Source: a bacterium (GTDB lineage Bacteria; Patescibacteriota; Minisyncoccia; Phycocordibacterales; UBA5272). From it: a DNA stretch of 64,000 nucleotides. The DNA is taken from NCBI GenBank assembly GCA_023267635.1, contig JAHFMX010000001.1, positions 83,165 through 147,164 on the forward strand, in the 5' to 3' direction. The notes beneath the pieces were generated by a model, which had not been told where the DNA came from, ran no database searches, and was given only the letters and a program-made list of their open reading frames with translations. Made by a program: the position numbers and the translations under genes. Shown here one piece after another: positions 14,299-63,695 of the stretch. Every line of letters starts with the position of its first letter. Position 1 is the stretch's first letter.

Positions 14299-14396
14299 AA
14301 TTTTCAATTTCTAGTTTTCAATTTTCAATAAAAATCTAATGTAAACAATTAAAACATTATATATTGATTAGAAATTTAAAATTCCAAATTTAAAAT
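14299..14396. repeat. AT-rich intergenic repeat (TTTTCAATTT / GATTAGAAATT family)
   Basis: ttttcaatttctagttttcaattttcaat...attgattagaaatttaaaattccaaatttaaaattagc; copies in both orientations at 40141-40210, 46942-47058, 56006-56110, 57443-57486, 57848-57902, 61836-61952, 63150-63189, 63570-63622. Confidence 0.75.
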
Positions 14397-14417
14397 TAGC
14401 CTGCTATACTATTTCAT

Positions 14418-14885
14418 ATGACAACTATCTATTTGGCTACAGATCATGCGGGCTATGAATTAAAAGAAGCAATTAAAGCGTGCCTTGAAACAACCGAGAA
14501 TTACGAAGTCTATGACTGTGGGGCGCTCACTCTAGAGCCAGGGGATAACTATCCAGAGTATATGGCTCGTGCGGCAGAGAAGGTGCAGTACGATTCGATG
14601 CATGATCCATCGGTCGCTATTATTTTTGGAGGTTCGGGAGTAGGGGAAGCTATTGTTGCGAATCGTTATGCTCATGTGCGCGCTGTCGTCTACGCTGGAG
14701 GACCACTCGATGTCATCAAGGTATCACGTGAACATAATGATACAAATGTGCTTTCTTTAGGTGCTCGTTTTGTTTCAGGAAGTGAAGCTAAACAAGCGGT
14801 AGATCTTTTTCTTACGACGCTCTTCTCTCATGATGAACGACATGCTGATCGAGTAATTCAGATCGACGAGGTAACAAGTAAGTAG
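14418..14885 (+). CDS. rpiB: ribose-5-phosphate isomerase B
   Basis: 155 aa; MTTIYLATDHAGYELKEAI is typical of the RpiB/LacAB family; TATACT 7 nt before ATG. Confidence 0.85.
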   Translation: MTTIYLATDHAGYELKEAIKACLETTENYEVYDCGALTLEPGDNYPEYMARAAEKVQYDSMHDPSVAIIFGGSGVGEAIVANRYAHVRAVVYAGGPLDVIKVSREHNDTNVLSLGARFVSGSEAKQAVDLFLTTLFSHDERHADRVIQIDEVTSK

Positions 14886-14886
14886 T

Positions 14887-15891
14887 ATGGAACATGCACC
14901 ATTTTCTAATCAAGGGTTAGAGCCAGAACGTTTAGAAAAGGAAGAGGGTTTGTGGGTTCAAAAAAGAGAACAAGTAGAAGATTTTCTAAAAAATGAAATA
15001 GATTTTACTGCCATAGGTGACATAATTGGGGAGATGTATTTTAAGTCTCGTCCCGACGCTCCAGAACGAGGACAAGATGATTTACGCAAGTATAGATTTA
15101 GTAATATTTATGATCCAAAGTATGAAGTGCAGTATGTTTATAGTGATAACGGTAAAGCTGTAACAGCTCAGGCTAAAAAGGGGAGAATACATTTCTCAGC
15201 ACGGTCTTTTTTTGAAAATAACGAACTGAATCGAGCGTTGCTGCTTCATGTAACTATTCATGAATTATGCCACCTCGCTTCTTTAACGGTTTCTTTTGAC
15301 TCAAAAACAGAACGCACGCAATTGAGCGGAGTATCATCCGTAACATATAATGTTCAAGCGTTAAGAGAGGATACTGTAGAGGGAAAAGATAAAGAATTAG
15401 AAGTATTATTTAGTGGGCTTAACGAAGGAATTACTGAGTTCGTTTCAGATGCGGTGTATAGTGAATACCTTGCGCGAACTGGTAAAGTTTTGGAAACTGT
15501 ATACCAAAAAGGATTTGTAACTAACGAGGTTCATGGTTTGATTGAAACACCAGTAACATATTATGATGAAAGAATTGCAGCTTACGAATTAATTGAAAAG
15601 ATAAGTCAGGAAAGTGAACTACCCATGGAGACCGTAACAGAAGGTTTCGTTCAAGCCTATTTAAGGAATGAACGACTTGATTCAGAAGACTTGTTAAGTT
15701 TTTTTGATGAAGATTCAAAAGCTGTATTATTTTTGAATAAATTAAAAGGTAATGATATTGCAAAACATGAGCACGATAAACAGCGTTTTTTGGTAGATAT
15801 TTTACCTAATACAGAAAGGATTTTTGTAAAGGCTTTATTTGGTAGAGATGTGGTTGGGACGTATAATAAGAATATAATAGAGTCTCTATAA
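14887..15891 (+). CDS. hypothetical protein with HExxH zinc-metallopeptidase motif
   Basis: 334 aa; HVTIHELCH motif; start 1 nt after the rpiB stop; no other recognisable domain. Confidence 0.45.
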   Translation: MEHAPFSNQGLEPERLEKEEGLWVQKREQVEDFLKNEIDFTAIGDIIGEMYFKSRPDAPERGQDDLRKYRFSNIYDPKYEVQYVYSDNGKAVTAQAKKGRIHFSARSFFENNELNRALLLHVTIHELCHLASLTVSFDSKTERTQLSGVSSVTYNVQALREDTVEGKDKELEVLFSGLNEGITEFVSDAVYSEYLARTGKVLETVYQKGFVTNEVHGLIETPVTYYDERIAAYELIEKISQESELPMETVTEGFVQAYLRNERLDSEDLLSFFDEDSKAVLFLNKLKGNDIAKHEHDKQRFLVDILPNTERIFVKALFGRDVVGTYNKNIIESL

Positions 15892-15915
15892 AACTACCAA
15901 CATCTAATTTAGTAT

Positions 15916-16590
15916 ATGAATATCGTCCCTGCAATTCTTACGTATAGTTTTGAAGAAGTGAAAGAAAAACTTTCACGCCTTGAAGGGCTGGTGACACATG
16001 TTCAAATTGATGTGTGTGATGGAGTGTTTGGAATGTATAAAACTTGGCTCCCAGAAGGGGAAGATGGGGCAGAAGTATTATCTTCTGATTTCACGTACCA
16101 GTTCGATGTTATGGTTGATGATTGGCGAGTGTACATTCCACGGTGCCTTGCACATAAAGCTTCTTCTATTGTGGCTCACGTAGATATGTTTTCAGATCAG
16201 GATCTTGCTGATTTAGTTGCCATGGTTTCTCCGGCCACTATACCGCTCGGTATTTCTGTTTCAAATGATAAAGATGTTGAACTGCACGCTGAAGCTATAC
16301 GTAAAATACAAACCATGTACCCAAATGTATTCATTCAGGTAATGGGTATTCCTCATGTGGGCGCGCAGGGTCAGTTCTTTGATGAACAAGCACCAGTCCG
16401 TGTAAAAGCGCTTAAGCAACAATTTAGTAATCTTCTTATTCAAGTTGATGGAGGCATGAGACCAGAAACGGTTGCGTCTGTTGTTCACAGTGGTGCTGAA
16501 ACAGTTGTAGTTGGTTCTTTTTTGTTTGCTTCTTCAGATATTGGGAGTGCGCTTAAAAAATTAGAACTCCTCGAGTGTAATTCTATCTAG
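15916..16590 (+). CDS. rpe: ribulose-phosphate 3-epimerase-like TIM-barrel protein
   Basis: 224 aa; IVPAIL..HVQIDVCDG..; C-terminal QVDGGMRPETVASVVHSGAETVVVGSFLF matches the Rpe phosphate-binding end; lies between rpiB and transketolase. Confidence 0.55.
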   Translation: MNIVPAILTYSFEEVKEKLSRLEGLVTHVQIDVCDGVFGMYKTWLPEGEDGAEVLSSDFTYQFDVMVDDWRVYIPRCLAHKASSIVAHVDMFSDQDLADLVAMVSPATIPLGISVSNDKDVELHAEAIRKIQTMYPNVFIQVMGIPHVGAQGQFFDEQAPVRVKALKQQFSNLLIQVDGGMRPETVASVVHSGAETVVVGSFLFASSDIGSALKKLELLECNSI

Positions 16591-16660
16591 AACAGTGTAG
16601 TGCACATTTTCTGTGAACTAGACGCTCTCGTAAGAGCACCTCACACTGTATACTGTAGGC

Positions 16661-17527
16661 ATGCATTCTCTTACTGATGTTGAAGTTCAAGCGCTCACAC
16701 TTCGTGCAGAGGATATACGTGAAAGTATCGTAAAGATGCTTGTTGAAGCGGGTTCAGGTCATACAGCTGGTCCGCTCGGTATGGCAGATGTTTTTACTGC
16801 GCTTTATTTTAGAATACTTAACCATAATCCGCGTCATCCAGACTGGATTCAGCGTGACCGCGTAATTCTTTCAAATGGACATATTGTTCCTGTGCTCTAT
16901 GCAACTATGGCTCACGCTGGATATTTTTCAGTGTCAGAACTTAAAACGTTACGAAGATTCGGGTCACGTCTGCAAGGGCATCCACATCGAGAAAGTCTAC
17001 CAGGACTTGAAACAACCTCAGGCCCTCTTGGGTGTGGACTTTCTCAAGCAATTGGTATGGCGCTCATGGATCGCCTCGAAGGACACAAGCCAAATCGTTA
17101 TTTCTATTGTTTGATGAGTGACGGAGAATTAGACGAAGGACAAAATTGGGAATCATTGCTTCTTCTTAACAAATACAAGTTAACAAAAGTAATTCCTATT
17201 ATTGATCGCAATACTATTCAAATTGATGGGTACACAGAAGATGTGCTCCCACTGGAATCTCTTAAGGATAAATTAGAGAGTTTTAATTTTCATGTGATAG
17301 AAATTGACGGTCATGATTTTAGAGATATTATGAGAGCTGTTGGAGCTGCTAAAAATTCATTGGATAAACCAACCGTAATCATTGCACACACCATCCCTGG
17401 AAAAGGGGTTACAGCATTTGAAGGTGATTTTAGGTGGCACGGAAAAACTCCGAATGAAGAAGAAGCAAAGAAAGCTTTGAAAGAACTTCGTACATTTAAG
17501 GGGAAGGTACTACACGGAGAAGCTTAA
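16661..17527 (+). CDS. transketolase, N-terminal (TPP-binding) subunit
   Basis: 288 aa; GSGHTAGPLGMADVF, GHPH motifs; TATACT 6 nt before ATG. Confidence 0.85.
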   Translation: MHSLTDVEVQALTLRAEDIRESIVKMLVEAGSGHTAGPLGMADVFTALYFRILNHNPRHPDWIQRDRVILSNGHIVPVLYATMAHAGYFSVSELKTLRRFGSRLQGHPHRESLPGLETTSGPLGCGLSQAIGMALMDRLEGHKPNRYFYCLMSDGELDEGQNWESLLLLNKYKLTKVIPIIDRNTIQIDGYTEDVLPLESLKDKLESFNFHVIEIDGHDFRDIMRAVGAAKNSLDKPTVIIAHTIPGKGVTAFEGDFRWHGKTPNEEEAKKALKELRTFKGKVLHGEA

Positions 17528-17531
17528 TACT

Positions 17532-18518
17532 ATGTTACGAAAAACTTTATTTACAGTCAAAGAAGAAGAGCGAGCCACACGAGATGGTTTTAGTGATGGG
17601 CTTGTACAAGCAGCAGATGATAACTCAAAAGTTGTTGCTCTTTGTGCTGACTTAACAGAGAGTGTACGTATGGAGGCGTTTCGTACAAAGTATCCAAATA
17701 GATTTTTCGAAGTAGGTATTACTGAGCAAGCGATGTCGGGTGTGGCAAGTGGTATGGCTGCGATGGGATATGTTCCTTTCATGGCATCCTACGCCATGTT
17801 TTCTCCCGGAAGAAACTGGGAGCAAATCCGTACCACCATCGCGTACAATAATGTGCCAGTGAAAATAGTTGGAGCTCACACTGGATTATCTGTTGGGCCT
17901 GACGGGGCAACACATCAAGCGCTCGAAGATATAGCGCTCATGCGTATGGTTCCAAATATGGAAGTGTTTGTTCCGTGTGATGCGATTGAAGCAACAGCAA
18001 TCACGCAGCATATTGCAAAAACAGTAAAACCTTCATATCTTCGCCTCACTCGTGAAAAGACACCGCTGATTCTTTCAGACGAATATGAATGGAATGGTGG
18101 CAAGGCATACATCATGTCATTTCCACGACACAAGCATGGAGGGGATTTTATGCATTCAGTGGGGATTATTGCATGTGGTCCTGTTATCTATGAAGCGCTT
18201 AAAGCGGCAAAAGAATTAGAAAAAGAAAATATAGGAGTAACGGTGGTAAATATGCCACAAGTAAAACCACTTGATGGTGGGTTCCTTCTTCGTTTTGCAA
18301 AAGATGTGAAGGCCATTGTTACGGTTGAAGAGGCTCAGACAGCAGGAGGGTTGGGTGGCGCGGTTTCAGAATTTTTAAGTGAACATCATCCAATTCGTAT
18401 TATCCGTGTTGGAGTTGAAGATAGATTTGGACAATCAGGGAAACCACAAGAATTATATGAGGAGTACGGTCTTACAGCAAAACATATTGCTGAAAAAATA
18501 CGATCAGTGATCAGATAG
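17532..18518 (+). CDS. transketolase, C-terminal (pyrimidine-binding) subunit
   Basis: 328 aa; FEVGITEQAMSGVASGMA, transketolase C-domain; immediately follows the N-subunit gene. Confidence 0.85.
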   Translation: MLRKTLFTVKEEERATRDGFSDGLVQAADDNSKVVALCADLTESVRMEAFRTKYPNRFFEVGITEQAMSGVASGMAAMGYVPFMASYAMFSPGRNWEQIRTTIAYNNVPVKIVGAHTGLSVGPDGATHQALEDIALMRMVPNMEVFVPCDAIEATAITQHIAKTVKPSYLRLTREKTPLILSDEYEWNGGKAYIMSFPRHKHGGDFMHSVGIIACGPVIYEALKAAKELEKENIGVTVVNMPQVKPLDGGFLLRFAKDVKAIVTVEEAQTAGGLGGAVSEFLSEHHPIRIIRVGVEDRFGQSGKPQELYEEYGLTAKHIAEKIRSVIR

Positions 18519-18520
18519 AT

Positions 18521-18550
18521 AAAAAGCGCGCCTCATAGGCGCGCTTTTTA
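18521..18550. terminator. bidirectional intrinsic terminator between convergent genes
   Basis: AAAAAGCGCGCC-TCATA-GGCGCGCTTTTT. Confidence 0.7.
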
Positions 18551-18560
18551 TCTGCACTCT

Positions 18561-19562
18561 TTAAAGTATTACTAGTTTGTAACTCTCAGGGGCTTTTTGT
18601 AAAAATTCCTCAATTGCTTTCTCGGAAAGAAGCCCTTCTTGAGCCCCGATATGCTGCACAACATTCATACTGTTAATTGGCGCGCGGTTGATTGCGTAAA
18701 TAGGATCATACCCTTTAACAAGATATGCAATGAAGGTTGAGAAAAAAGCGTCTCCTGCACCAGTGCGCTCAAGCGGCGGCGCAATGTCTGGGTAGATTGG
18801 CATATTGAAATAGGTATGATCATATTTCATATAGGCGCCGAGAGGTCCGTCGGTAATAATAACAGTCGACGGGCCGAGTGCTTCTAATCCATCCAGTAGT
18901 TTTTTTATATCATGTTCATCACTTTCAAGTAAGACTTGGGCTTCTTCTTTATTAACACATACAACATCTGTTTCTTTGTAGAGCTCTGTATTCTTTCCCA
19001 TCTTGAGTTGAAATGTTCCTGGCTGAAACGCTACGCGTACATCTGGATTATTTTTTACATACGCTGTCAGCTCGTCGTGGAAGCTTTCAGTGTGAGCACC
19101 TAGCGAAGAGATGTACAACCAAGTAGGGGAACCAATTGCTGGAAGGGAATAATCAAACGCTTCGTGTTTTACAAGAATGGTTCGATCATCACCATACCAT
19201 AGTACGTAGTGATAGTTAGTTTTTTTACCAGCTTGCAGTTGTATGAAATCGCTCAGCACACCTTCTTTAACAAGCGTTTCTCTACAGAGATTTCCATAAG
19301 CGTCCTCACCTAACCATGTGAGAAGGGAAGAGTGTACACCTAAGCGCGCAGCTGAAACCGCAGCGTTGGCGCTGTTTCCGACACCAGCAATAAGAGTAGC
19401 GCTTTCGTAAGGAACTTTTGCGCCGTATGGAATACAAAGTTCAGGACCATTAGCTGTTTCTTGCACATGTCCCACAGAAAGCTTGATGAAAGGTTCAATA
19501 ACTGTATCACCAACCGCGAGGAATGTTCCTGTATTTGTTGCACTATTTTCCTTATCTGTCAT
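18561..19562 (-). CDS. PfkB-family carbohydrate kinase (ribokinase-like)
   Basis: 333 aa; C-terminal TGAGDAFFSTFIAYL signature; N-terminal GG-type sugar-binding region. Confidence 0.8.
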   Translation of the reverse strand: MTDKENSATNTGTFLAVGDTVIEPFIKLSVGHVQETANGPELCIPYGAKVPYESATLIAGVGNSANAAVSAARLGVHSSLLTWLGEDAYGNLCRETLVKEGVLSDFIQLQAGKKTNYHYVLWYGDDRTILVKHEAFDYSLPAIGSPTWLYISSLGAHTESFHDELTAYVKNNPDVRVAFQPGTFQLKMGKNTELYKETDVVCVNKEEAQVLLESDEHDIKKLLDGLEALGPSTVIITDGPLGAYMKYDHTYFNMPIYPDIAPPLERTGAGDAFFSTFIAYLVKGYDPIYAINRAPINSMNVVQHIGAQEGLLSEKAIEEFLQKAPESYKLVIL

Positions 19563-19590
19563 GAACGTATGGTATCACGAACTTCTTGTT

Positions 19591-19705: not shown

Positions 19706-19729
19706 CACACTCTGGTATACTGTATTGAT

Positions 19730-21777: not shown

Positions 21778-21782
21778 ATAAT

Positions 21783-39721: not shown

Positions 39722-40144
39722 ATGGAAGAATCAAAAACACACATCAATCCTTACATTGGAAATATCCAAGCACTCGTCATGCGGAATGATAATTTTCGTG
39801 AGGTTCTTTTTACGGGAGAGAAATCTCAACTCGTTGTGATGTCGATTCCTGTTGCTGGTGAAGTAGGAGAAGAGACACATGAACATGTAGAACAAACGCT
39901 CTACATTGTGGCTGGTATATGTAAGGTTGTGCTTGATGGCGAAGAACATGTTGTCTCAGGTGGAGATGTGATAGTGGTAACTCCTGGAACAAAACATAAT
40001 TTTATAAACGTAGGAGAAGAATTTGTAAAAATTATTACAACGTACTCTCCACCAAACCATATTGATGGTCGAGTTCATGCTACGAAAGAGGATGCCGAAC
40101 TTGATACTGCTGATGAGGAATTTGGTCATCAGTATACAAGTTAA
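39722..40144 (+). CDS. cupin-domain protein
   Basis: 140 aa; two-motif cupin pattern (GEETHEHVEQTLYIVAG..., GDVIVVTPGTKHNFINVGEE). Confidence 0.65.
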   Translation: MEESKTHINPYIGNIQALVMRNDNFREVLFTGEKSQLVVMSIPVAGEVGEETHEHVEQTLYIVAGICKVVLDGEEHVVSGGDVIVVTPGTKHNFINVGEEFVKIITTYSPPNHIDGRVHATKEDAELDTADEEFGHQYTS

Positions 40145-40213
40145 TTTTTAATTTAAAATTTGAAATTTTAAAAATTGATTAGAAATTAAAAATTTCAAAT
40201 TAAAAATTGCGCA

Positions 40214-46869: not shown

Positions 46870-47052
46870 GTTTCCAGTATATCATAAGGGGTATAGGCCT
46901 GTAAATATGGGGATAGTTGTCCCTTCGTGGTGTGTTGAGAGCTAAATTTCTAATTTTCAATTTAAAATTTCTAATCAAATCTAAATGTTTCAAAATTAAT
47001 ACATGTAGACATTGAAAATTCAATAAAAATTTATAATTAGAAATTGAAAATT

Positions 47053-47075
47053 CTTTGCAACTACTGTTGCAAAGC
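47053..47075 (-). terminator. hairpin overlapping the dnaE stop
   Basis: CTTTGCAAC-TACT-GTTGCAAAG perfect 9-bp stem, followed on the minus strand by a T-rich repeat region. Confidence 0.4.
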
Positions 47076-51103: not shown

Positions 51104-54100
51104 ATGCAAGAGATTAGTTGCCCTCCATTTTTTATATATAAGAAAATTCTAATCTCTACCCTTGTCTTCTTTATTGGTATCACTTCTGTAGAGGTTCACG
51201 CAGCATCAGATTTTCAGCAGAATTTAAACACCACATCTTCTGTATCTGGCAATAGAGATACATCTTTCCAGTATCCGTCACTTTCAAACCTCATCACCTT
51301 ACGTGTAGCCACCCCCTCTAAACACAACCTTTCTCTTCCTGGAACATCTAATCGAGAAATAGCTGTCGCAGGTCCAACTATCTCTCTCATTGGAAACGTA
51401 CAACCACGAGAACTTATTTTGCGTAATAGTGAATCTTCGTTATTTTCTTTCCCATCATTCTTTTCTCTTCAGATTACTAGATACAAAATGCCACGTCTTG
51501 CACAGATTGAACTGCTCCCAGTAAAAAAATATGTATCATTTGCTTTGGGTGCAAATACAGTGCGTGCAGCAGAAGAGCTTTCAACAAAAAAAGCATCTCT
51601 TCCTTTCATTGATCAATTGTCACTCTCTTTCTTTTGCGCACTTGCTCCACGCAAACAGGTCATTGATAGTAGACGCTGTGATTATCAAACACTTGCAAGT
51701 GGGCGACTTGATTTACCGTCTGGTCTTGCAACAAACATCAATCCATCGGCAGAAGAGCCCTCAGCAACAGAAGAATTACCAGCTCCAACTGAAGTAGCCA
51801 CAACAAACCAAACCCCACCTCTCTCTCCATCTTCACCAATCTACCTTACCCGCTACATCACCTCCTACATCGGCATCCCAGGTCCAGCAGGTAAAGATGG
51901 AACAGATGGTAAAGACGGAGTAAACGGTATCACGTCATCTGCACCAGAAGGCTATGGTTCCTACCTCATTCCATCGTACTCTTCTCCAGCAACATCAATT
52001 GGAGTTTCTACCATCTCCTACCTACGACAAACAACCATTGAACTTCCTGTCATTACAGGAGGTACTGCAACTAATTTGTCTCTCATCACACCAACGGTAC
52101 AAGGTGGAGTATTCAGTGGTCTCTCACTCTTCAATGACTCTGCATCATTCACTGGTTCAGTAACCATCAACAACCTTACAGCTACCTCAACCACAGTAAC
52201 CAATCTCACTGCAACTAACGCCACTACCACCACCGCATACATTGATGTCCTTACCGTAGGATCATCCACTGCAGGAAGCCTTACACTAAGTGGCACCTTA
52301 AACGTAGCAGGGACTTCAACGCTTGCAACTACTACCGCATCTTCTTTCACTGCAACCTACGCAACCACAACAAACCTCTTCACGCAGAATCTTTCTGTGG
52401 GTAATGCTTCAACAACAGGGAATCAATCAATTGATGGACAATTCAACGTATCAGGAACATCAACCCTTGGAGCAAAGGTTTTCCTTAACGGAAGTGTGGT
52501 AGTTGGTACTTCCACTGATGAACTGTTCACCGTAAACGCACTTGTTAACTCAAACATTACTCCATCTCAGAACATTACCTATGACCTCGGTTCTGCATCT
52601 TTCTACTGGAGAAACCTCTACGCTAACAACATTAACGTAAACAGTATCTCTGCTGCCTCAACCACCATCTCTGGAACATCTAACAATGACTTCATTGTGA
52701 ACTCAGACAATGGTTCCTCTGATGCTGAAGATGCTTCCCTTGTGTTCTTCCGCGGACTCTCTACACCAAATGCTCTCATACGTTGGAACTCTGCAACCAA
52801 GCGTATTGAATCCAACATGAGTTTCAAAGTACAAAACGAAACACCAACCACAGGAACCACAACACTCACCGTACAAGCAGGCGCAGGACAGTCATCGACC
52901 AATCTCTTCGAACTCCTTAACAATGCAGGAACCAAACTCTCTGCATTTACCTCACAAGGATGGCTAGGTATTGGAACTACCACTCCCTCTACATCTCTTC
53001 ATCTTACTACTAACGATGGACTCATCATTCCAGCAGGTACAACAGCACAGCGTCCAAGCACAACTCTCCCAGGTGTCATCAGATACAACACTACTAACAC
53101 TGGCTTTGAAGGATTCAATGGTTCTACCTGGGGATCTCTTGGTGGAGTAAGTGATGCAGATCAAAATACCTACATCTCAGCTGAGAACTCAGCTGGAGCA
53201 AACAATGATGAACTGAAGTTCTATACCGCAGGTACACTACGAGGCATCTTCTCCTCAACAGGGAACTTTGGGGTGGGGACGAGTACGCCAGGGGCGAAGT
53301 TGACAGTTGATGGTACTCTAACAGCTGGTGATACTGTTATAAGTGGATCAGGTAATGCCAATGGTCTTACTATTAAAAATGGAACCACGAACCAAGCATA
53401 TTCAGGTGGGTTGACTCTTGCATCAAATGATGGCACATCTGTAATCTCAAGAATGTATGCCTCTACAGCAGGTTTGTTTTTGTCTTATGGTGGTGCAGAT
53501 ATTGGAGCTTTCACTGGTAGTGGATTATCCATCGTAAGTGGGGCAACGTATAAAATTAACGGGGCAACAATCGCTCAAGCTTCCACCACCCTCAATAACT
53601 ACTTCTTTGGTAATTCTGGAAATTTGACGATGACAGGTAATTACAACACCGCAACTGGTTATACCTCTCTCTTCTCCAACACCACCGGCTCCTACAACAC
53701 CGCGAATGGTGCGCAATCCCTCTACTCCAACACCACCGGATCCTACAACACCGCGAATGGCAGCTATTCCCTCATCTACAACACCACCGGAAACTTCAAC
53801 ACCGCGAATGGCAGCTATTCCCTCCAATCCAACACCACCGGCGGTGCCAATACCGCGAATGGTTATGCTTCCCTCAACTACAACACCACCGGCTCCAACA
53901 ACACTGCAAATGGCAGCTATTCCCTCAACCACAACACCACCGGCACCCAAAACACCGCGAATGGTATGTATTCTCTCTACTCCAACACCACCGGATCCTA
54001 CAACACCGCAAATGGTTATCAATCCCTCAACTACAACACCACCGGCACCCAAAACACCGCGAATGGCATGAATTCTCTCTACTCCAACACCACCGGATCC

Positions 54101-55987
54101 TACAACACCGCGAATGGTATGTATTCTCTCTACTCCAACACCACCGGCACCCAAAACACCGCGAATGGTTATGCTTCCCTCAACTACAACACCACCGGCT
54201 CCAACAACACTGCAAATGGCGTGAACGCCCTCTTCTCCAACACTACAGGTAGTTTCAACACCGCTTTTGGCTACCAAGCTGGATACGGAGATGGAACTGT
54301 AAATCAAGCTTCTATTATAGACAATTACATGACCTTCCTTGGCTACCAAGCATCTCGTGATGCATCTGTTGCTTCCACAACAGCTCTCACTAACGGAACT
54401 GCTATCGGAAAGAATGCTAGAGTCGGTGCTTCAAACACTATTGTCCTTGGGGGTACTGGAGCAGATGCAGTGAATGTGGGGATTGGAACTGTTCTACCAA
54501 CATCTCGACTTAACGTTGTTGGAACAACTACACTTGTTGGATCATCAACCTCTTCTACTGCACTACACGTAATTGGAAATATTGATAACACAGCAACGAG
54601 TACGTTTGCACCGAGACTTATTTCTAGTCCGAGTACTGGAGTAAATCCAGGTTCAGTCTTCGTCTCTGGTCGTTATGCTTATACGGCGAATTTTAATGGC
54701 AACTCTATGTCCATCATCGACATCTCCAATCCAGCTTCTCCTGCAACTATTTCTACCCCAAGTACTGGGTCAGGATCAGGTTCGTATTCAGTCTTCGTCT
54801 CTGGTCGCTATGCGTATGTGGCGAATGTTAATACTAACTCTATGTCCATCATCGACATCTCTAATCCAGCTTCTCCAACAGTTGTAGCTACTTCAAGCAC
54901 TGGAGCTGGCCCATACTCAGTCTTCGTCTCTGGTCGCTATGCGTATACGGCGAATCAAAATGCTGGCACCATCTCCATTATCGACATTTCCAACCCCACT
55001 TCTCCTATAACAGTAGCTACTCCAAGTACTGGAGCTACTCCACGCTCCGTCTTCGTCTCTGGTCGTTATGCGTATGTGGCGAATAGCGGTGGCAGTTCCA
55101 TGTCCATCATCGACATTTCCAATCCAGCTTCTCCAGTTACCGTCTCTACTCCAAGTACTGGAGCTGGCCCACAATCCGTCTTCGTCTCTGGTCGTTATGC
55201 GTATGTGGCAAATAATGCTAGCAGCACCATGTCCATTATCGACATCAAAAACCCTGCATCTGCCGTCACAGTAGCTACTCCAAGCACTGGAGCTGGCCCA
55301 CAATCCGTCTTCGTCTCTGGTCGTTATGCATATGTGGCGAATAATAGTGCTAACACGATGTCTATCATTGACGTCTCAAATCCAAGTTCCCCAGTTACCG
55401 TCTCTACTCCAAGCACTGGAGCTGGCCCATTCTCAGTCTTCGTCTCTGGCCGTTATGCGTATGTGGCGAATAATAGTGCTAGTTCCATCTCCATCCTCGA
55501 CCTCGGTGGTATTGAATCCACTTCAGCTATTATCCATTCGCTTACTACCGGTAATCTTTCAGTTAACAATGACATCTTTGCAAATGGAAATATCGTAGCG
55601 AATGGGGGACTCACCATTGCAAGCGGATTCCAATCCCAAAATAACTCATCTGTGTATGGCTCGCTTAATGTTTCTACAGCAAACAGCGTGTCGCAGCTAC
55701 GTCTAGGTAAAACAAGTTCTGTGTATGCTGATCTAACGCTTGATAGTGGGGGAGATCTTACTTTCACCACAACTGGGTATAACGTTAAAGCAATGAGTAA
55801 CAACTTGTATATTTGTGATAATGCAGGATGTCCAACACTCACCGCTACAAGTACAGCAGGAAACATCTTTGTGGAAAATGCTCAAGTGTTCGGTAATAAT
55901 TTCTCTATTAACCAGACCTCTTCAACCTCTCTTGGTATGTTTGATCATAGTGGCTCACTAATTATGACGTTTGATGAAGCTCCATAG
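51104..55987 (+). CDS. giant secreted surface protein: signal peptide, short collagen-like triplets, Thr-rich beta region, about 13 copies of a 15-aa repeat, 8 LVIVD-type beta-propeller repeats
   Basis: 1627 aa; signal KKILISTLVFFIGITSVEVHA/AS; GIPGPAGKDGTDGKDGVNG; NTANGxxSLxxNTTGxx repeated; SPSTGxGPxSVFVSGRYAYVANxxxxSMSIIDISNPASP repeated 8 times (LVIVD-like). Confidence 0.7.
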   Translation: MQEISCPPFFIYKKILISTLVFFIGITSVEVHAASDFQQNLNTTSSVSGNRDTSFQYPSLSNLITLRVATPSKHNLSLPGTSNREIAVAGPTISLIGNVQPRELILRNSESSLFSFPSFFSLQITRYKMPRLAQIELLPVKKYVSFALGANTVRAAEELSTKKASLPFIDQLSLSFFCALAPRKQVIDSRRCDYQTLASGRLDLPSGLATNINPSAEEPSATEELPAPTEVATTNQTPPLSPSSPIYLTRYITSYIGIPGPAGKDGTDGKDGVNGITSSAPEGYGSYLIPSYSSPATSIGVSTISYLRQTTIELPVITGGTATNLSLITPTVQGGVFSGLSLFNDSASFTGSVTINNLTATSTTVTNLTATNATTTTAYIDVLTVGSSTAGSLTLSGTLNVAGTSTLATTTASSFTATYATTTNLFTQNLSVGNASTTGNQSIDGQFNVSGTSTLGAKVFLNGSVVVGTSTDELFTVNALVNSNITPSQNITYDLGSASFYWRNLYANNINVNSISAASTTISGTSNNDFIVNSDNGSSDAEDASLVFFRGLSTPNALIRWNSATKRIESNMSFKVQNETPTTGTTTLTVQAGAGQSSTNLFELLNNAGTKLSAFTSQGWLGIGTTTPSTSLHLTTNDGLIIPAGTTAQRPSTTLPGVIRYNTTNTGFEGFNGSTWGSLGGVSDADQNTYISAENSAGANNDELKFYTAGTLRGIFSSTGNFGVGTSTPGAKLTVDGTLTAGDTVISGSGNANGLTIKNGTTNQAYSGGLTLASNDGTSVISRMYASTAGLFLSYGGADIGAFTGSGLSIVSGATYKINGATIAQASTTLNNYFFGNSGNLTMTGNYNTATGYTSLFSNTTGSYNTANGAQSLYSNTTGSYNTANGSYSLIYNTTGNFNTANGSYSLQSNTTGGANTANGYASLNYNTTGSNNTANGSYSLNHNTTGTQNTANGMYSLYSNTTGSYNTANGYQSLNYNTTGTQNTANGMNSLYSNTTGSYNTANGMYSLYSNTTGTQNTANGYASLNYNTTGSNNTANGVNALFSNTTGSFNTAFGYQAGYGDGTVNQASIIDNYMTFLGYQASRDASVASTTALTNGTAIGKNARVGASNTIVLGGTGADAVNVGIGTVLPTSRLNVVGTTTLVGSSTSSTALHVIGNIDNTATSTFAPRLISSPSTGVNPGSVFVSGRYAYTANFNGNSMSIIDISNPASPATISTPSTGSGSGSYSVFVSGRYAYVANVNTNSMSIIDISNPASPTVVATSSTGAGPYSVFVSGRYAYTANQNAGTISIIDISNPTSPITVATPSTGATPRSVFVSGRYAYVANSGGSSMSIIDISNPASPVTVSTPSTGAGPQSVFVSGRYAYVANNASSTMSIIDIKNPASAVTVATPSTGAGPQSVFVSGRYAYVANNSANTMSIIDVSNPSSPVTVSTPSTGAGPFSVFVSGRYAYVANNSASSISILDLGGIESTSAIIHSLTTGNLSVNNDIFANGNIVANGGLTIASGFQSQNNSSVYGSLNVSTANSVSQLRLGKTSSVYADLTLDSGGDLTFTTTGYNVKAMSNNLYICDNAGCPTLTATSTAGNIFVENAQVFGNNFSINQTSSTSLGMFDHSGSLIMTFDEAP
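53640..54260 (+). repeat. tandem 45-bp coding repeat, about 13 copies
   Basis: Unit approximately CAACACCACCGGxxCCTACAACACCGCGAATGGxxxxxxxTCCCTC; encodes the 15-aa NTTGxYNTANGxxSL period. Confidence 0.85.
54600..55500 (+). repeat. tandem coding repeat of about 120 bp, 8 copies (LVIVD-like propeller blades)
   Basis: Recurrent GTCTTCGTCTCTGGTCGTTATGCGTATGTGGCGAAT...ATGTCCATCATCGACATTTCCAATCCAGCTTCTCC. Confidence 0.85.
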
Positions 55988-56123
55988 AAATACCACATAG
56001 TAATGTGAATTTTCAATTTCTAATTTTCAATTTTCACTCAATGAGTTAATTTTAAAATTAAAAACATTGGAAATTCATTAAAAATTAGAAATTAAGAATT
56101 AAAAATTATGCTAGCATACACCC

Positions 56124-57442: not shown

Positions 57443-57486
57443 AATTAATTTTCAATTTCAAATTTTTAATTTTCAATCAATTTACA

Positions 57487-57855
57487 ATGACTGAAGTTAT
57501 TAAAAATAAGTATGATTTAGAGGAAAGGACATTCAAATTTGCAGAAGATGTTATAGGGATATGTAAAACAGTAAAGAAAGACATTGTAAGCACGCCTGTA
57601 ATTTCTCAACTTATTCGTTCTGCGACAAGTATCGGTGCAAATTATATGGAAGCAAACGGTGCCAGTTCTAAAAAGGATTTTATAAATAAGATATTTATTT
57701 GCAAAAAAGAAGCACAAGAAACAAAGTACTGGTTACGAATATTGGCAGTTTGCTTTGATGACAAAAAAGTAGAAATAAGGAAATTATGGAAAGAATGCCA
57801 AGAACTCACTCTTATTTTTTCTAAAATAGCAGCCTCTTCAAAGCTTAAAAATTAA
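57487..57855 (+). CDS. four-helix-bundle protein (23S rRNA IVS protein / Avd-like family)
   Basis: 122 aa; conserved RSATSIGANYMEANGASSKKDF and FICKKEAQETKYWL core typical of the family; paralog at 63190. Confidence 0.7.
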   Translation: MTEVIKNKYDLEERTFKFAEDVIGICKTVKKDIVSTPVISQLIRSATSIGANYMEANGASSKKDFINKIFICKKEAQETKYWLRILAVCFDDKKVEIRKLWKECQELTLIFSKIAASSKLKN

Positions 57856-57980
57856 AATATTTAAGCATTCATTTAAAATTAGAAATTTGTAATTGAAAAT
57901 TACACCTCTTTTATATTTCTGTGGATTTACTACGTACCACAAGGAGGTGTCCGTAGTGTATACTGAAGGGAATAAACACT

Positions 57981-58385: not shown

Positions 58386-58414
58386 CCATTTAATGTCTTT
58401 ACTTCACCTTCACT

Positions 58415-61400
58415 ATGCTAGCAAATAGAACTCTTCAAGCAGCATCAAATACGGGATATCAGATTCAGCGTAGTTTGCGGTTTCGTGGTAATGTAAGCGC
58501 GTATTTAAGTAAAACTTTTGCTACCGGAAACAGAAGGACTTGGACTTTAAGTTGCTGGGTTAAGCGTGGATCGTTGAGCTCTTTTCAAACTATGTTTAGC
58601 GCTGGCACAACTTCTCCTAATTATGCAGGATTTCGCTTTACTGATACTAATGCATTACAATTTTTTGTTGGCGGCGCTGTATCTGTTAATTGTATAACAA
58701 ATGCTGTATATCGTGATCCGTCTGCTTGGTATCATGTAGTTCTTCGTTTCAATACAACTGAAGCAACAGCATCTAATCGTATTATTATCTATGTAAACGG
58801 AACTCAATCTGTATTAGGTACAGCAAATTATCCAAGCCAAAACACTGATTGGGAGGTTAATAATACGTATATTCATACACTTGCAGCACAGTGGATTACC
58901 TCTGCAACTACACATTTCGACGGCTATATGTCTGAAGTTAATTTCATCGATGGACAAGCCTTAGACGCAAACTCCTTTGGCCAAACCGACCCTGTTAGCG
59001 GAGTCTGGTCCGCAAAAAAATATATCGGCACATACGGTAACAATGGATTCTATTTAGATTTTAACGATACGTCTTCTGTTGAAGCTCTTGGGTACGACAA
59101 GCAAACAACCTCACGCACATTCTCAACTGCAGGCACATATAGTTTTACTGTGCCAACATATTCAACTAGTTTAGTGGTGAAGCTTTGGGGAGGTGGAGGT
59201 GGAGGTGGAGGTGGAGGTTCAACGTTTGGAAATAGTGGAACAAACGGAACCGCTACTACATTCTCTACTCTTTCTGCAGGTGGTGGAGGAGGAGGGACGG
59301 GTGCATGGACAGCAAACCCAACAGGATCTTCTGGTGCCGGAGGAACGGCCACAGGGGGAACTATCAATACTAATGGAAACAGTATCGCAACCACAAACGG
59401 GGCCACCACGGGTGCTGGCGCACCAAACGGTGGAGGTAATACAGTCACCGCTACTGCTAATGCGGAACACTATGCTGGAACTGTTCCTGGAGGAGCAGGT
59501 ACAGGAGGGCGTTGGGAGGGTTCTGGAAATCCAACTGGAGGAGCGGGGGGTTCTGGTGCGTATGTAGAAAAAACGTACAATGTTGGTGATTTAATACCAG
59601 GCACTGTTATGTCTATTACAGTTGGCGCTGCCGGTTCTGGTGGTTCTTCTGACGCTGATCAGGGAGCGAATGGGGCAGATGGTCGTATTATGATTATTGT
59701 AGATAGAGTTTTTCTCACTGATGTTTCTAGTGTGGCTGGGTGGACACTTAACACAGGAGTAGGGGGAACACCTTCTATTACGCTTACTTCAGGCGATACT
59801 CGTGTTGCTAATGGTTCAAATAACTCTGTCGGGTACTATAAAACAATTTCAACAGTTATTGGTCAAACATATTATGTGGAGGGGCGTATATTTAACGTTA
59901 GCGTTGGAGCGGCTGATCGCGCCGCTTCTATTGTTAAAGCGGACGTCAGTGCATTTAATGTAAACGTAGTGACTATCGGGTCTGTTCTACAGTCTTCTGG
60001 TAGTGGAACTGTTCGCGGCACATTCGTGGCTACAGCTACTACGACGTATATTTCACTTGCTGCAGATATTCTTACTTCAGGGTCTGCGGATTTTGAGGAT
60101 GTTACTGTGGGAACGGTAGGGTTTATGAATAATTGGACCCCGACGAATATAAGTCTTACCGCAGGCGCTACCTATGACTCAATGCTTGATGTTCCGTTAG
60201 GTGGAGGGGGAAGTGAGAGAGGGAATTACTGTGTTCTTAATCCTTTAATTTCACAGACATCACTTGCTTCAGGGAATCTGTATGCCTCTACTACAGGACA
60301 ATCTGGCGCTGCTGGGACAATAGTTTTTCCATATGCAAAAACAATATTTGAATCAGTGTTTGGGCTCCCCGGTGCATCAAATCATGTTGGAGTAATTCAA
60401 GCAAACTGTACACAGTCGCAACTTCAAACTATAGCGACCGCTGACGGTGTTCTTTACCGATCTGATGGGGGTATTTTTAGAGATACAGGTAGCGGTTATT
60501 CACAAATACAGACCGTTGCAAGCTACACTAACAGTGAGGTGATTGGTGTGGCTGTTGATATTACGGTACCTTCTGTTCAGTTTTACAAAAATGGTTCTGC
60601 TGTCGGTACTCCAGTGTCACTAACGGCTTCCGTATCATATTTACCATTCGTCCATTTTGGAGGGGGTACTCTTAATGCTAATGTTAACTTCGGCCAACGT
60701 CCTTTTACATATACCCCGCCTACTGGATTCAAAGCTCTTCATACGGGTAATCTTCCTATTCCAGCAATTCGAAAACCAAATCAGTATTTCGATGTTATAA
60801 CCTACACAGGAGACAGCTCTTCTTCTAGAAGTATAACTGGACTGCATTTTGCGCCAGATTTTGTGTGGTCTAAACCGCGGACAGCTGGCTCATCCTCAAT
60901 TCCGCATTGGTTGTATGATAGAGTTCGTGGCACAGGCGCCAACTCTCTCTATTCGTTGTCGACAAATAATTCGGATGCAGAATTTGACTCGTTGGGGGGA
61001 TCTGGTAATGCGACAGCCTTCACTTCTGATGGGGTAACCTTTACCTCAGGAACATCTAATAATTTTAATAGAAATGAAAGTGGTGTTTTATTTGTAAACT
61101 GGAACTGGAAAGCCGGAGGCACAGCAGTCACCAACACCGCAGGAACTATCACTTCCCAAGTGAGTGCGAATACCACTTCTGGGTTTTCGATTGTTACTTT
61201 TACAGCTCACGCTGCAGGTTCTGGTACTTTTGGACACGGTCTCGGCGTTGTACCAGCCATGGTTATCGTTAAGTCCAGAAGCAGTGTTACTGATTGGTTT
61301 GTTTATCATAAATCTTTAGGAGAAACTAAAAATGTTCGACTTAATTTGACAGATCCCTCTGATATACGGACAGGTGCTTGGAATGATACAGCTCCGACAT

Positions 61401-61810
61401 CTACTGTTGTTACTCTTGGAAGTAATTGGGCATCATCAGTTTCAATGGTTGCCTACGTCTTTGCGGAAGTTGCTGGGTTTTCAAAATTTGGTAGCTACAC
61501 AGGAAATGGAAGCGCCGACGGTCCATTTGTATATTGTGGATTTAGACCACGGTATGTGATGTGGAAGCGCACAGACACCGCTGGCAACTGGTACATGTTG
61601 GACGCAGTGCGAGGCACATCGCAGCCTATAAACGCTACACTGTATCCGAACCTCTCAAATACGGAGTACTCTGCGTCAACAGAGTTTGTTGATTTCCTGT
61701 CAAACGGCTTCAAGCAAAGAAACACGGAACCTGACAAGAACGGCAGCGGCGGCACATACATCTTCATCGCATTTGCTGAAGCTCCGTTTAAGTACGCGCT
61801 CGCGAGATAG
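58415..61810 (+). CDS. large secreted protein: LamG/concanavalin-like N-terminal domain plus glycine-rich domain (phage tail-fibre type) plus C-terminal beta-rich region
   Basis: 1131 aa; WYHVVLRFNTTEATASNRIIIYVNG (LamG-like jelly-roll); YSFTVPTYSTSLVVKLWGGGGGGGGGGS...ITVGAAGSGGSS..GADGRIMII matches the glycine-rich domain of phage tail-fibre proteins. Confidence 0.65.
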   Translation: MLANRTLQAASNTGYQIQRSLRFRGNVSAYLSKTFATGNRRTWTLSCWVKRGSLSSFQTMFSAGTTSPNYAGFRFTDTNALQFFVGGAVSVNCITNAVYRDPSAWYHVVLRFNTTEATASNRIIIYVNGTQSVLGTANYPSQNTDWEVNNTYIHTLAAQWITSATTHFDGYMSEVNFIDGQALDANSFGQTDPVSGVWSAKKYIGTYGNNGFYLDFNDTSSVEALGYDKQTTSRTFSTAGTYSFTVPTYSTSLVVKLWGGGGGGGGGGSTFGNSGTNGTATTFSTLSAGGGGGGTGAWTANPTGSSGAGGTATGGTINTNGNSIATTNGATTGAGAPNGGGNTVTATANAEHYAGTVPGGAGTGGRWEGSGNPTGGAGGSGAYVEKTYNVGDLIPGTVMSITVGAAGSGGSSDADQGANGADGRIMIIVDRVFLTDVSSVAGWTLNTGVGGTPSITLTSGDTRVANGSNNSVGYYKTISTVIGQTYYVEGRIFNVSVGAADRAASIVKADVSAFNVNVVTIGSVLQSSGSGTVRGTFVATATTTYISLAADILTSGSADFEDVTVGTVGFMNNWTPTNISLTAGATYDSMLDVPLGGGGSERGNYCVLNPLISQTSLASGNLYASTTGQSGAAGTIVFPYAKTIFESVFGLPGASNHVGVIQANCTQSQLQTIATADGVLYRSDGGIFRDTGSGYSQIQTVASYTNSEVIGVAVDITVPSVQFYKNGSAVGTPVSLTASVSYLPFVHFGGGTLNANVNFGQRPFTYTPPTGFKALHTGNLPIPAIRKPNQYFDVITYTGDSSSSRSITGLHFAPDFVWSKPRTAGSSSIPHWLYDRVRGTGANSLYSLSTNNSDAEFDSLGGSGNATAFTSDGVTFTSGTSNNFNRNESGVLFVNWNWKAGGTAVTNTAGTITSQVSANTTSGFSIVTFTAHAAGSGTFGHGLGVVPAMVIVKSRSSVTDWFVYHKSLGETKNVRLNLTDPSDIRTGAWNDTAPTSTVVTLGSNWASSVSMVAYVFAEVAGFSKFGSYTGNGSADGPFVYCGFRPRYVMWKRTDTAGNWYMLDAVRGTSQPINATLYPNLSNTEYSASTEFVDFLSNGFKQRNTEPDKNGSGGTYIFIAFAEAPFKYALAR
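59190..59222 (+). repeat. (GGAGGT)5 hexanucleotide microsatellite encoding poly-Gly
   Basis: ggaggtggaggtggaggtggaggtggaggt within the Gly-rich domain coding sequence. Confidence 0.85.
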
Positions 61811-62029
61811 GGGTCTAATTAAACCGATTACAGTTTAATTAATTTCTAATTCTCAATTTTAAATTTCTATTGAATGAGTTAAAGCTTCAATGTTTTTAAA
61901 ATTAAATTCATTAAAAATTGATTGAAAATTCAAAATTTGAAATTGAAAATTAATAAGGTATTCCAAACACGTGTGGATGTATCCAGTACTCTTGAGACCA
62001 GACCTGTTGTATACTATAAATATAAATCT

Positions 62030-63148
62030 ATGATAGGAAAAATAGTTAATTTCATCCAGTATAATAACTTCTTCACACTTACTCTTATGTTTGTGTTTAT
62101 GGGGGCAAGTGCAACATTTGCTGCAAGTCCTGATGCTCGTGCGAGTATTATTGACCAAAAGGAAACCGTTCGTTCAGTTGATAACACCTATCTTATCAAT
62201 ACCGACTTCACGCTCTTTGAGGTGGGGCTAAAAATTCAGTCTGTTAAAGAAGATGATGAGTGGTACTACATTGACTACACCTACAACACTGCGGAAGTAG
62301 TTGATTATGTGTGGATGAGGGTTGCAAAGACAGCTTCAATGAAAGTAACTAAAAAGGAACTAGGAGCCAAAGATCTTGGTCTCTATGTTGCTGAACAATT
62401 AGGCCAGGTAACTGATCAGAAACTCGCATACCTACAAGATATTCAAAAGATAGAAAAGAAAATTGGCATGACACAGAAGGTTGTTGCTACGGAGTATTCT
62501 GGTTTAGTCGGGCAGTTTTTAAGTGCTGATGAAAAAACCTTCGAAGGGTATGTTCCTGTTAAGCCGCCAATACTTGTTGCAGCCTTTGAGTCAACAGGGG
62601 AGAACACAACATTGATTGGCACAGAGTTAGGAACGACCTACGGAGTACCAACCCCAACCCCACTTTCTCCTGAACAAATACAACGATTGATTTCAGATGC
62701 TGTGCGACAGCTACTCGCTGGAGATACTGCTACGACAACTGCGTCAACCACAATTGCTGTCATTGATACACCAACAACAGGAGGAGGGGGAGGTTCAACT
62801 CCAGCAGTGTCGACAGGGACGACCACTCCAGTTGATACATCAACTTCAACACCTGTAATTGCTTCAACAACGCCGACGGTAACTGGGACGACTACTCCAG
62901 CAGTAACTCCAACTGCGTCAACAACTCCATCAACTACTGCAACAACTACACCGTCAGATCCTGTAGCAACTTCTACTCCTGCAGAACCAACACCTGTGTC
63001 TGAGCCAGTTACTACGCCTGAGCCAACTCCAACTCCAACTCCAACTCCAACTCCTGAACCTGTAGTGGAGCCTACTCCTGCACCAGAACCAACACCAACA
63101 CCAGAACCGGCTCCTGCTCCTGTGGATGCAGTCACAACAACCCCTTAA
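62030..63148 (+). CDS. secreted protein with Thr/Pro-rich C-terminal linker
   Basis: Start set at ATG 62030 (the ORF track starts 61922 inside the AT-rich repeat); signal peptide FFTLTLMFVFMGASATFAASP; C-terminal TPTPTPTPTPEP low complexity encoded by a (CCAACT)n repeat. Confidence 0.5.
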   Translation: MIGKIVNFIQYNNFFTLTLMFVFMGASATFAASPDARASIIDQKETVRSVDNTYLINTDFTLFEVGLKIQSVKEDDEWYYIDYTYNTAEVVDYVWMRVAKTASMKVTKKELGAKDLGLYVAEQLGQVTDQKLAYLQDIQKIEKKIGMTQKVVATEYSGLVGQFLSADEKTFEGYVPVKPPILVAAFESTGENTTLIGTELGTTYGVPTPTPLSPEQIQRLISDAVRQLLAGDTATTTASTTIAVIDTPTTGGGGGSTPAVSTGTTTPVDTSTSTPVIASTTPTVTGTTTPAVTPTASTTPSTTATTTPSDPVATSTPAEPTPVSEPVTTPEPTPTPTPTPTPEPVVEPTPAPEPTPTPEPAPAPVDAVTTTP

Positions 63149-63189
63149 TAATTTTTAGTTTTCAATTTAAAATTTCTAATCAATTTTTA

Positions 63190-63555
63190 ATGACTCAAAT
63201 TATAAAAAAGGAATATGATTTAGAAAATAGAACGGCAGAGTTTGGAGAAAATATTATTAGATTTTGTAGAACTCTAAAATTAGATATCATAACCACACCT
63301 CTTGTTTCTCAGATAGTAAGATCTGCCACCAGTGTTGGCGCTAATTATATGGAGGCGAACGGTGCTAGTTCTAAAAAGGATTTCAGTAACAAGATATTTA
63401 TTTGCAAAAAGGAGATTCAAGAGACTAAACACTGGTTACGGATGCTTGCAGTTAATTTGGAAGATAGAAAAGTTGAAATAAGGGTTCTCTGGAAAGAAGC
63501 GCAAGAGCTTACCTTAATTTTTTCAAAAATAGCTTCATCAACCAAAAAGGGCTAA
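63190..63555 (+). CDS. four-helix-bundle protein (Avd-like family), paralog of 57487 gene
   Basis: 121 aa; about 70% aa identity to 57487..57855 including RSATSVGANYMEANGASSKKDF and FICKKEIQETKHWL; about 40 nt of upstream sequence also conserved between the two copies. Confidence 0.7.
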   Translation: MTQIIKKEYDLENRTAEFGENIIRFCRTLKLDIITTPLVSQIVRSATSVGANYMEANGASSKKDFSNKIFICKKEIQETKHWLRMLAVNLEDRKVEIRVLWKEAQELTLIFSKIASSTKKG

Positions 63556-63695
63556 TTATTTAGTAATTATAGTTTAAAAATTGATTAGAAATTAAGAACT
63601 AAAAATTAAAAATTGGAAATCGCTGATTCTATACACAAGCTAAAGGATACAGCGCTCTTGCCTTAACCCTTTAAATACGCTATAATAAACCAACT

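Follow-up and report, generated by a model that had tools for sequence, protein, structure and literature searches.

The window analysed here is a 64-kb stretch (contig JAHFMX010000001.1, positions 83,165–147,164 of the forward strand; GenBank assembly GCA_023267635.1) of the genome of a bacterium of the Candidate Phyla Radiation (CPR; Patescibacteriota, Minisyncoccia, Phycocordibacterales). It is a compact chromosome segment of about 42% GC whose housekeeping genes include gyrA, gap, rpiB, transketolase, uvrABC, nrdAB, dnaE, rnhB and tatC, and comparison with Rfam yielded a single tRNA and nothing else at gathering thresholds. Our subject is a family of AT-rich heptamer repeats that is dispersed over the intergenic spacers of this segment and arranged in inverted pairs, two of which enclose genes for small four-helix-bundle proteins.

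Each arm of such a pair is a run of about five 7-nt units (four or five in the 14 arms of the window) with an AATT core every 7 nt, the unit consensus being CAATTTT in the left arm and AAAATTG in the right arm, so that the arms are inverted relative to each other. A left arm of the form (AATTTnC)x4+AATCAAT is invariably paired, after 0–385 nt, with a right arm ATTGATT or ATTCATT followed by (nnAAATT)x4. The 14 arms make up seven inverted pairs (elements A–G, Table 1), each of which lies in an intergenic spacer and runs in the same direction as its flanking genes. Two of them, E and G, are set tightly around PF05635/TIGR02436 genes, while the other five (A, B, C, D and F; 66–111 nt) contain no open reading frame (ORF). 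All blocks listed in the initial annotation were found again at its coordinates or a few bases off, and both the forward and the reverse-complement forms that it described are real, but it overlooked their constant pairing into seven elements. It also placed the repeats around "Avd-like" genes, which two pairs do enclose, and did not see that they are the termini of cassettes carrying PF05635 genes.

Table 1. Inverted-repeat elements of the window and the genes that two of them carry (window coordinates).
Feature	Type	Position	Strand	Size	Arms	Family matches	Charge
Element A	ORF-less	14299–14397	+	99 nt	left 14299–14333; right 14363–14397		
Element B	minimal, ORF-less	40143–40208	+	66 nt	left 40143–40170 (4 heptads); right 40174–40208		
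Element C	ORF-less	46945–47052	-	108 nt	47018–47052 and 46945–46979		
Element D	ORF-less	56008–56107	+	100 nt	56008–56042 and 56073–56107		
Element E	gene-bearing	57447–57901	+	455 nt	left 57447–57481; right 57867–57901		
Gene of E	four-helix bundle	57487–57855	+	122 aa		PF05635 (E 1e-17), TIGR02436 (E 4e-23)	+7
Element F	ORF-less	61841–61951	+	111 nt	61841–61875 and 61917–61951		
Element G	gene-bearing	63150–63614	+	465 nt	left 63150–63184; right 63580–63614		
Gene of G	four-helix bundle	63190–63555	+	121 aa		PF05635 (E 2e-14), TIGR02436 (E 4e-20)	+6

The repeat observation is genuine and non-trivial. The sequence ATTGATTAGAAATT, with up to two mismatches, occurs 12 times in the window against 1.5 expected and a maximum of 5 across 100 dinucleotide shuffles, and there are 14 runs of at least four AATT cores at exact 7-nt spacing against none in 50 Markov shuffles. 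An nhmmer profile trained only on right arms from other genomes retrieves exactly the 14 arms of the window, with zero extra matches in the 64 kb. The copies are therefore neither limited to this window nor explained by mere AT-richness.

The elements fit closely between their neighbours. Element A lies between gap (stop at 14274) and rpiB (ATG at 14418), and its loop retains ATG-TAA. The first bases of B are overlapped by the upstream stop codon TAA (40142–40144), and the ATG of a MutY-like gene follows 5 nt past its right arm. Element C is located 8 nt past the dnaE stop, upstream of secG; its reverse complement reads ...TTATTGAATTTTCAATG, and it is the minus strand that corresponds to the family consensus. 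Element D, between the gene of an LVIVD protein and tatC, retains ATGAGTTAA in its loop, and G begins 1 nt past the upstream stop codon, with rpmF downstream. The loops of A, B, C, D and F all keep the start codon together with the last inner units or last codons of the gene-bearing form. The deletion junction ATGAGTTAA is common to D and F, and F also retains AAAGCTT of an E-like C-terminus. This common junction and the E-like codons in F identify the ORF-less copies as internal-deletion derivatives, and the occurrence of the junction at two loci implies the spread of at least one deletion form to a further locus. As a separate observation, a terminator-like hairpin, CTTTGCAAC-agta-GTTGCAAAG (47053–47074), overlaps the dnaE stop codon and adjoins element C, whose T-rich first units could act as its U-tract.

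The proteins of E and G are 70% identical and reach 64.6 and 54.1 bits, respectively, against PF05635 (cut-off 33.8) and 81.7 and 72.1 bits against TIGR02436 (cut-off 24). Both genes have their ATG 5 nt past the left arm and lack a Shine-Dalgarno sequence. An AlphaFold2 model of the E protein (pLDDT 91.5) consists of four long helices, for which Foldseek returned 2RLD (E 1e-5, TM 0.76–0.85) and 2GSC (TM 0.78–0.84), followed by Avd and a ribonucleoprotein of a diversity-generating retroelement (DGR; 4DWL and 8UB7, TM about 0.7). The entries 2RLD, 2GSC and 4DWL (Avd) all contain five chains, and 2GSC is Xcc0516 of Xanthomonas campestris. Avd is a basic, pentameric, nucleic acid-binding cofactor; the window proteins carry a net charge of +6 or +7, the CPR mean being +6. 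They share with Avd the four-helix-bundle fold, but their sequence identity to it is 12–14% and they stand in no reverse transcriptase, template/variable repeat or mutagenic homing context. The subfamily is large (at least 8000 clusters at 90% identity with E<1e-5), and among the best 120 of these >8000 clusters the protein identity stays at 66–83% across CPR classes, whereas that of TatC drops to 40–50%.

A scan of species-representative genomes gave at least 483 close protein relatives (60–75% identity) from Saccharibacteria, Kaiser-, Giovannoni-, Jorgensen- and Daviesbacteria, Microgenomates, CPR2, Berkelbacteria and others. Conservation was assessed in 80 loci from many Patescibacteria lineages, designated below by L numbers together with the other loci compared. 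The same arms were read in the flanks nearly everywhere, genomes of 56% GC included, and an inverted repeat with a score of at least 36 surrounds 72 of the 79 genes counted (91%) as compared with 4.7% of 443 control genes. The layout in the homologues is (AATTTnC)x4-AATCAAT-ATG...stop...ATTCAATG-(AAAATTG)x4, with the consensus AATTTTC AATTTTC AATTTnC AATTTTC AATCAAT TTTC AATG on the start side and ATT gAAAATT CAATGAAAATT GAAAATT GGAAATT GAAAATT on the stop side, and on both sides conservation stops exactly at the outermost AATT. ORF-less pairs are present in other CPR genomes too. The cassette occupies the tiny gaps that separate co-directional genes and is oriented as they are. In 55 of 68 loci both neighbours point in the same direction as the enclosed gene; for 40 of 64 left arms the distance to the upstream stop codon is at most 7 nt, and for 34 of 83 right arms a start codon follows after 0–12 nt. 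No rRNA similarity was found in the window or within 10 kb of the homologous loci examined (L004–L098), and no viral contig carries any of the 80 best homologues.

Comparison of syntenic pairs gave identities of 76–98% at codon positions 1 and 2 of the gene and of 35–80% at position 3, and the arms remain 74–95% identical even where fourfold sites are saturated at 25–40%. This pattern indicates sequence-level constraint, or purifying selection, on the gene and on both arms. The heptad class (C, G or A at unit position 7) was also compared with the protein clade; the classes track the clades, as plain descent predicts, and the comparison is non-discriminating. Other heptad families (nnACTAG, ACTAnnn, nnACTAC x4) are found near rpsL-rpsG in Kaiserbacteria (L005 12150–12240, L006 11110–11150), and CPR genomes may harbour two or more heptamer families. 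At some loci (L040, L065, L044, L049) GC-rich palindromes are nested in the AT-rich right arm 3' of the gene, as in GAAAATTG-CCTGCCCGCCAAAGCCTTGGCGCAGGCGGG-GAAATTG of L065; they resemble a second small element that targets the arrays.

Syntenic relatives located via TatC and both cassette proteins reveal the history of individual sites. Those with TatC 94% (L084), 70% (L085/L086) and 67% (L087/L088) identical to that of the window have no arrays over 57 kb, and sites D and E are short in them and carry no element; the spacer between the LVIVD gene and tatC, 136 nt in the window, is 3 nt in an empty-site example. Site D, empty in L084, L085 and L087, bears an ORF in L100/L101, where a cassette with a 124-aa product follows a 20-nt left flank identical to that of the window and the E orthologue is also present. 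This identical flank, AAATACCACATAGTAATGTG (window 55988–56007, L100 621–640), holds a small hairpin, CACAT-agta-ATGTG, while the adjoining arms differ and one of the two copies is ORF-less, which suggests that the element was replaced by conversion from another copy. In L103/L104/L106 (84–97% nucleotide identity, G protein identical) G is kept, C is absent, and a different ORF-less element is located directly upstream of rnc (L103 11675–11766); in close relatives the gene for RNase III lies about 1.4 kb downstream. That the same sites can be empty, ORF-bearing or ORF-less demonstrates gain as well as loss of the element. The orthologous rpsL-rpsG spacers of L005/L006 were rejected as an empty site, their spacer carrying a different heptad family, and L001–L003 belong to the same population as the window (99.6–100% identity) and are uninformative.

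Some neighbouring genes are variable as well. The giant LVIVD-repeat protein (51104–55987) contains in-frame 51-nt and 129-nt tandem repeats (53543–54352 and 54624–55548), and its length varies between near-identical strains (1627 aa in the window, 1525 aa in L001). The block made up of a LamG/SPRY/DUF7483 protein (1131 aa, 58415–61810) and the next, 408-aa protein (61922–63148) is not in L084 or L103, and the DUF7483 gene encodes 801–914 aa in L087 and L100. The 58415–63148 block is probably a fast-evolving surface-protein region, with E, F and G in and around it. At 8087–8914 and 10922–11227 lie the genes of two small proteins that have T4SS_pilin-like domains and are of a kind typical of CPR genomes.

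The same architecture, built from other heptamers, is found around distant family members in other phyla and in the 23S rRNA intervening sequence (IVS) of Coxiella. A tblastn search of plasmids gave 31 records with homologues at 30–45% identity, in Nostoc, Planktothrix, Gloeocapsa, Pseudanabaena, Bernardetia, Chondrinema, Chlorohelix, Treponema and Monoglobus. In the ten plasmid loci read, from five phyla, the gene again lies between co-directional operon genes (e.g., HsdS|HsdR, helicase|methylase), and lag 7 is the strongest periodicity in 19 of the 20 flanks. The unit of these period-7 arrays differs by lineage: (AATTCGT)x4/(ACGAATT)x4, (AATTCAA)x4/(TTTGAAT)x4, (CCCCAAT)x4(CGTAAAT)x3, GATGAAG-type, ATTTTAG and CTCTCCG; inverted arrays of such other sequence flank the homologues in Nostoc, Planktothrix, Gloeocapsa, Chlorohelix and Treponema. 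In a 50-kb stretch of the Nostoc plasmid pNFSY06, two inverted pairs bear the gene and at least three are ORF-less, each array having 4.1–4.9 units and about five AATT cores. Several plasmid cassettes are situated in or beside defence operons (L091, L092, L095, L096, L098), with HsdS|HsdR, helicase|N6-methylase, cas1 or a Swt1-family HEPN gene as neighbours.

Published data contain further cases of heptamer arrays and of this protein family. The Coxiella burnetii IVS in helix 45 of 23S rRNA has a 28-bp terminal stem with 3–4 GACAGAT heptamers up to the ATG of S23p and is cut by RNase III (PMC4990558). In X. campestris an array of four GGGAATC units overlaps the start codon of Xcc0516, whose structure matches that of our protein, and the genome contains 186 GGGAATC arrays, 70 of them in inverted pairs (PMC4692102). 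TTTTGAA/TTCAAAA arrays near start codons in Nostoc 7120 alter the expression of recF and recO reporters, their binding partner being "yet to be identified" (bioRxiv 10.1101/2022.06.06.494920), and rRNA insertions of CPR bacteria now and then carry 23S_rRNA_IVP ORFs (bioRxiv 10.1101/2024.02.27.582315).

The window elements have several features in common with the 23S rRNA IVSs that carry an S23p ORF in Coxiella and Leptospira: a length of about 430–470 nt, terminal inverted repeats of about 28–35 nt made of tandem heptamers up to the ATG, a protein of the same family whose gene has little or no Shine-Dalgarno sequence, a sporadic distribution pointing to horizontal transfer, and ORF decay and deletion variants (PMC4990558). 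Their termini are complementary as well (79–84% over the 35-nt arms), though the predicted stems are weak. They differ in lying between protein-coding genes, outside rRNA, in the heptamer (AATTTTC here, GACAGAT in Coxiella), in an ORF that is under purifying selection here and decaying in Coxiella, and in the many ORF-less copies per genome; RNase III cleavage is proposed for them by analogy. With the arrays of Nostoc 7120, Xanthomonas and the short tandemly repeated repetitive (STRR) sequences of cyanobacteria they have in common intergenic tandem 7-nt units, usually in 3–5 copies and often at start codons, and frequent convergent inverted pairs (70–75 per Xanthomonas genome; PMC4692102). The papers on these arrays treat them as simple-sequence repeats, G-quadruplex formers or regulatory motifs and draw no connection to PF05635 genes, whereas here, as in the plasmid loci and at Xcc0516, they are the termini of PF05635 cassettes. 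STRR arrays, CCCCAAT and others, were reportedly described by Mazel in 1990. The Correia elements of Neisseria and the REPIN/RAYT systems are short dispersed intergenic inverted repeats that are co-transcribed with their neighbours and in which gene-bearing copies are fewer than non-autonomous ones; RNase III cleaves Correia transcripts, which can also carry outward promoters. Like these and like MITEs (miniature transposable elements with inverted repeats), the window elements are small, dispersed and polymorphic for presence or absence. Unlike them, they have no transposase or RAYT partner and no detected TA or other target duplication, their arms are tandem heptamer arrays instead of unique terminal inverted repeats, and the "autonomous" copy encodes just a 120-aa helical bundle.

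The repeats are probably best explained, mechanism included, as the two inverted arms of a small IVS-type cassette located outside rRNA. The part of this explanation that concerns structure and behaviour (paired arms, gene-bearing and ORF-less copies, gain and loss, spread through the CPR, selection and recurrence elsewhere) we hold with great confidence. As to mechanism, the element would be transcribed within the host operon, its arms would pair, and the resulting stem would be cut by RNase III as experimentally shown for rRNA IVSs; such a cut would uncouple the element from its neighbours and make its insertion tolerable. The predicted fold of the ORF-less copies as RNA is the expected long hairpin. 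For this processing step, argued from the analogy with rRNA IVSs, the case for and the case against come close to balance, the doubts being slightly heavier. The basic, presumably pentameric protein might in turn be a trans-acting reader of the heptamer arrays, with one core per subunit, that would serve gene-bearing and ORF-less copies alike, for their spread or for the control of processing or translation; this step is more doubtful still.

A number of results weigh against these proposals. The stems are predicted to be weak (-12 to -19 kcal/mol, z -1.7 to -2.5), G-U wobble pairs on the sense strand are not in excess (112 vs 147), and arm complementarity within the window elements is no higher than between elements. 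In 43 elements 84% of the arm positions pair, mostly via the invariant palindromic AATT cores; the spacer positions do show CG/GC/UA exchanges but are unpaired in 25–60% of the elements, covariation is modest, and the innermost unit is systematically non-complementary. The weak stems, the lack of wobble excess, the complementarity that is no higher within than between elements, the core-borne pairing and the non-complementary innermost unit jointly favour sequence recognition over a maintained RNA helix, and the arms look like one recognised unit set in inverted orientation, not like a helix maintained base by base. With respect to protein binding, the correspondence of five cores to a pentamer is numerology: arrays have up to 14 units in Xanthomonas and 3–4 in Coxiella. 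With respect to mobility, the window encodes no transposase, integrase or reverse transcriptase, the four-helix-bundle protein is without a known catalytic motif, and no target-site duplication, the hallmark to which the initial annotation had pointed, is discernible at D, E or C in comparison with the empty sites, where the flanks are 10–25% diverged and the terminal AATT could conceal a palindromic target duplication.

Two other explanations of the repeats have little in their favour. Ordinary AT-rich intergenic DNA might appear repetitive by composition alone, given units that are nearly pure A/T and predicted folds just about 2 standard deviations better than shuffles; however, the absence of arrays from the shuffles, the profile from other genomes that matches these sites alone, the same arms kept at 56% GC and the syntenic relatives of like composition that carry none make such an artefact practically inconceivable. 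The "Avd-like/fibre cassette" of the initial annotation might be read as a DGR, of which the elements would be a remnant or accessory part with an Avd gene and a target "fibre" gene. The shared Avd fold and the large LamG/SPRY/DUF7483 surface protein gene between the two gene-bearing copies would suit this idea, but there is no reverse transcriptase and no template/variable repeat pair anywhere in the window, the closest solved relatives, 2RLD and 2GSC, are non-DGR S23-family proteins, and the same cassettes recur in unrelated contexts across the 80 loci. We consider a DGR origin extremely improbable.

More serious is the possibility of a DNA transposon with non-autonomous, MITE-like copies, in which the arms would be terminal inverted repeats, their binding partner would be either a recombinase whose gene lies elsewhere in the genome or the four-helix-bundle protein as a DNA mobility factor, and RNA processing would be irrelevant. 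The empty, filled and ORF-less states at orthologous sites, the deletion junction that D and F have in common at different loci, arm sequences conserved like transposase-binding ends and the high identity of the protein across CPR classes relative to TatC are all compatible with it. Yet reading of the flanks revealed no transposase beside any of the 80 loci, just as there is none in the 64 kb, target-site duplications were not found, the 80 best homologues are all absent from viral contigs, and the strong co-orientation with host transcription is unexpected for a DNA-only element; we would call the transposon conceivable but rather doubtful. Of the three guesses made in the initial annotation a MITE-like family came closest, in view of the inverted repeats, the presence/absence polymorphism and the short copies that are deletion derivatives, with the transposase and the target-site duplication missing. 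Its suggestion of promoter UP-like elements that replace a -35 leads to the view that the arrays are primarily host regulatory modules. The right arm would then be an outward promoter (TTGAAA-N17-GAAAAT, or an A/T-rich UP/-35 surrogate before an extended -10) and/or an A/U-rich translation enhancer for near-leaderless genes devoid of a Shine-Dalgarno sequence, and the four-helix-bundle gene would be a regulated gene or a regulator, which is compatible with the IVS-type cassette. TTGAAA-17-GAAAAT matches do exist in the outward arms of F and E, and extended -10-like motifs TGnTAnnnT immediately follow the right arms of A and D (14401–14409, 56109–56117), 7–9 nt ahead of the ATG of rpiB and tatC, and suggest leaderless or near-leaderless mRNAs. 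The many right arms close to downstream start codons, the conservation of the arms in sequence rather than in pairing and the reporter effects in Nostoc 7120 (bioRxiv 10.1101/2022.06.06.494920) point the same way. Against this, promoter-like sites are not enriched (33 vs 36 expected from shuffles), the check for terminator function gave no enrichment either, the same operons work array-free in relatives with spacers down to 3 nt, the proximity to start codons is partly a consequence of the compactness of CPR genomes, and the inverted pairing, the enclosed gene and the presence/absence polymorphism are left unexplained. A primarily regulatory role appears unlikely on balance.

The IVS-type cassette described here is a new, non-rRNA, CPR-wide variant, and the general association of PF05635 genes with inverted heptamer arrays is apparently undescribed; within the literature searched, we found no paper tying heptamer arrays to the PF05635/IVP family. 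One may speculate, although we think it unlikely that all of this will prove correct, that PF05635 pentamers are the missing sequence-specific partners of bacterial heptamer arrays, with one subunit per 7-nt unit as in the trp RNA-binding attenuation protein (TRAP), and that the protein and its inverted arrays form an unrecognised class of transposase-less mobile or regulatory cassettes, extending from the CPR to cyanobacteria, Xanthomonas and Coxiella, of which rRNA IVSs, STRRs and GGGAATC arrays would be special cases.

Three puzzles appear to be one: the function of the S23p/IVP/"four helix bundle" family, the origin of the rRNA IVSs, and the heptamer repeats known in cyanobacteria since 1990 and in Xanthomonas. 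For annotation, the finding accounts for the AT-rich hairpins that occur by the dozen in each CPR genome and allows "Avd-like" genes outside DGRs to be flagged. If the protein does read the arrays, it would be a concrete candidate for the heptamer-binding factor "yet to be identified", and the cassettes would represent a new kind of selfish or regulatory element that colonises the operon spacers of the smallest bacterial genomes.

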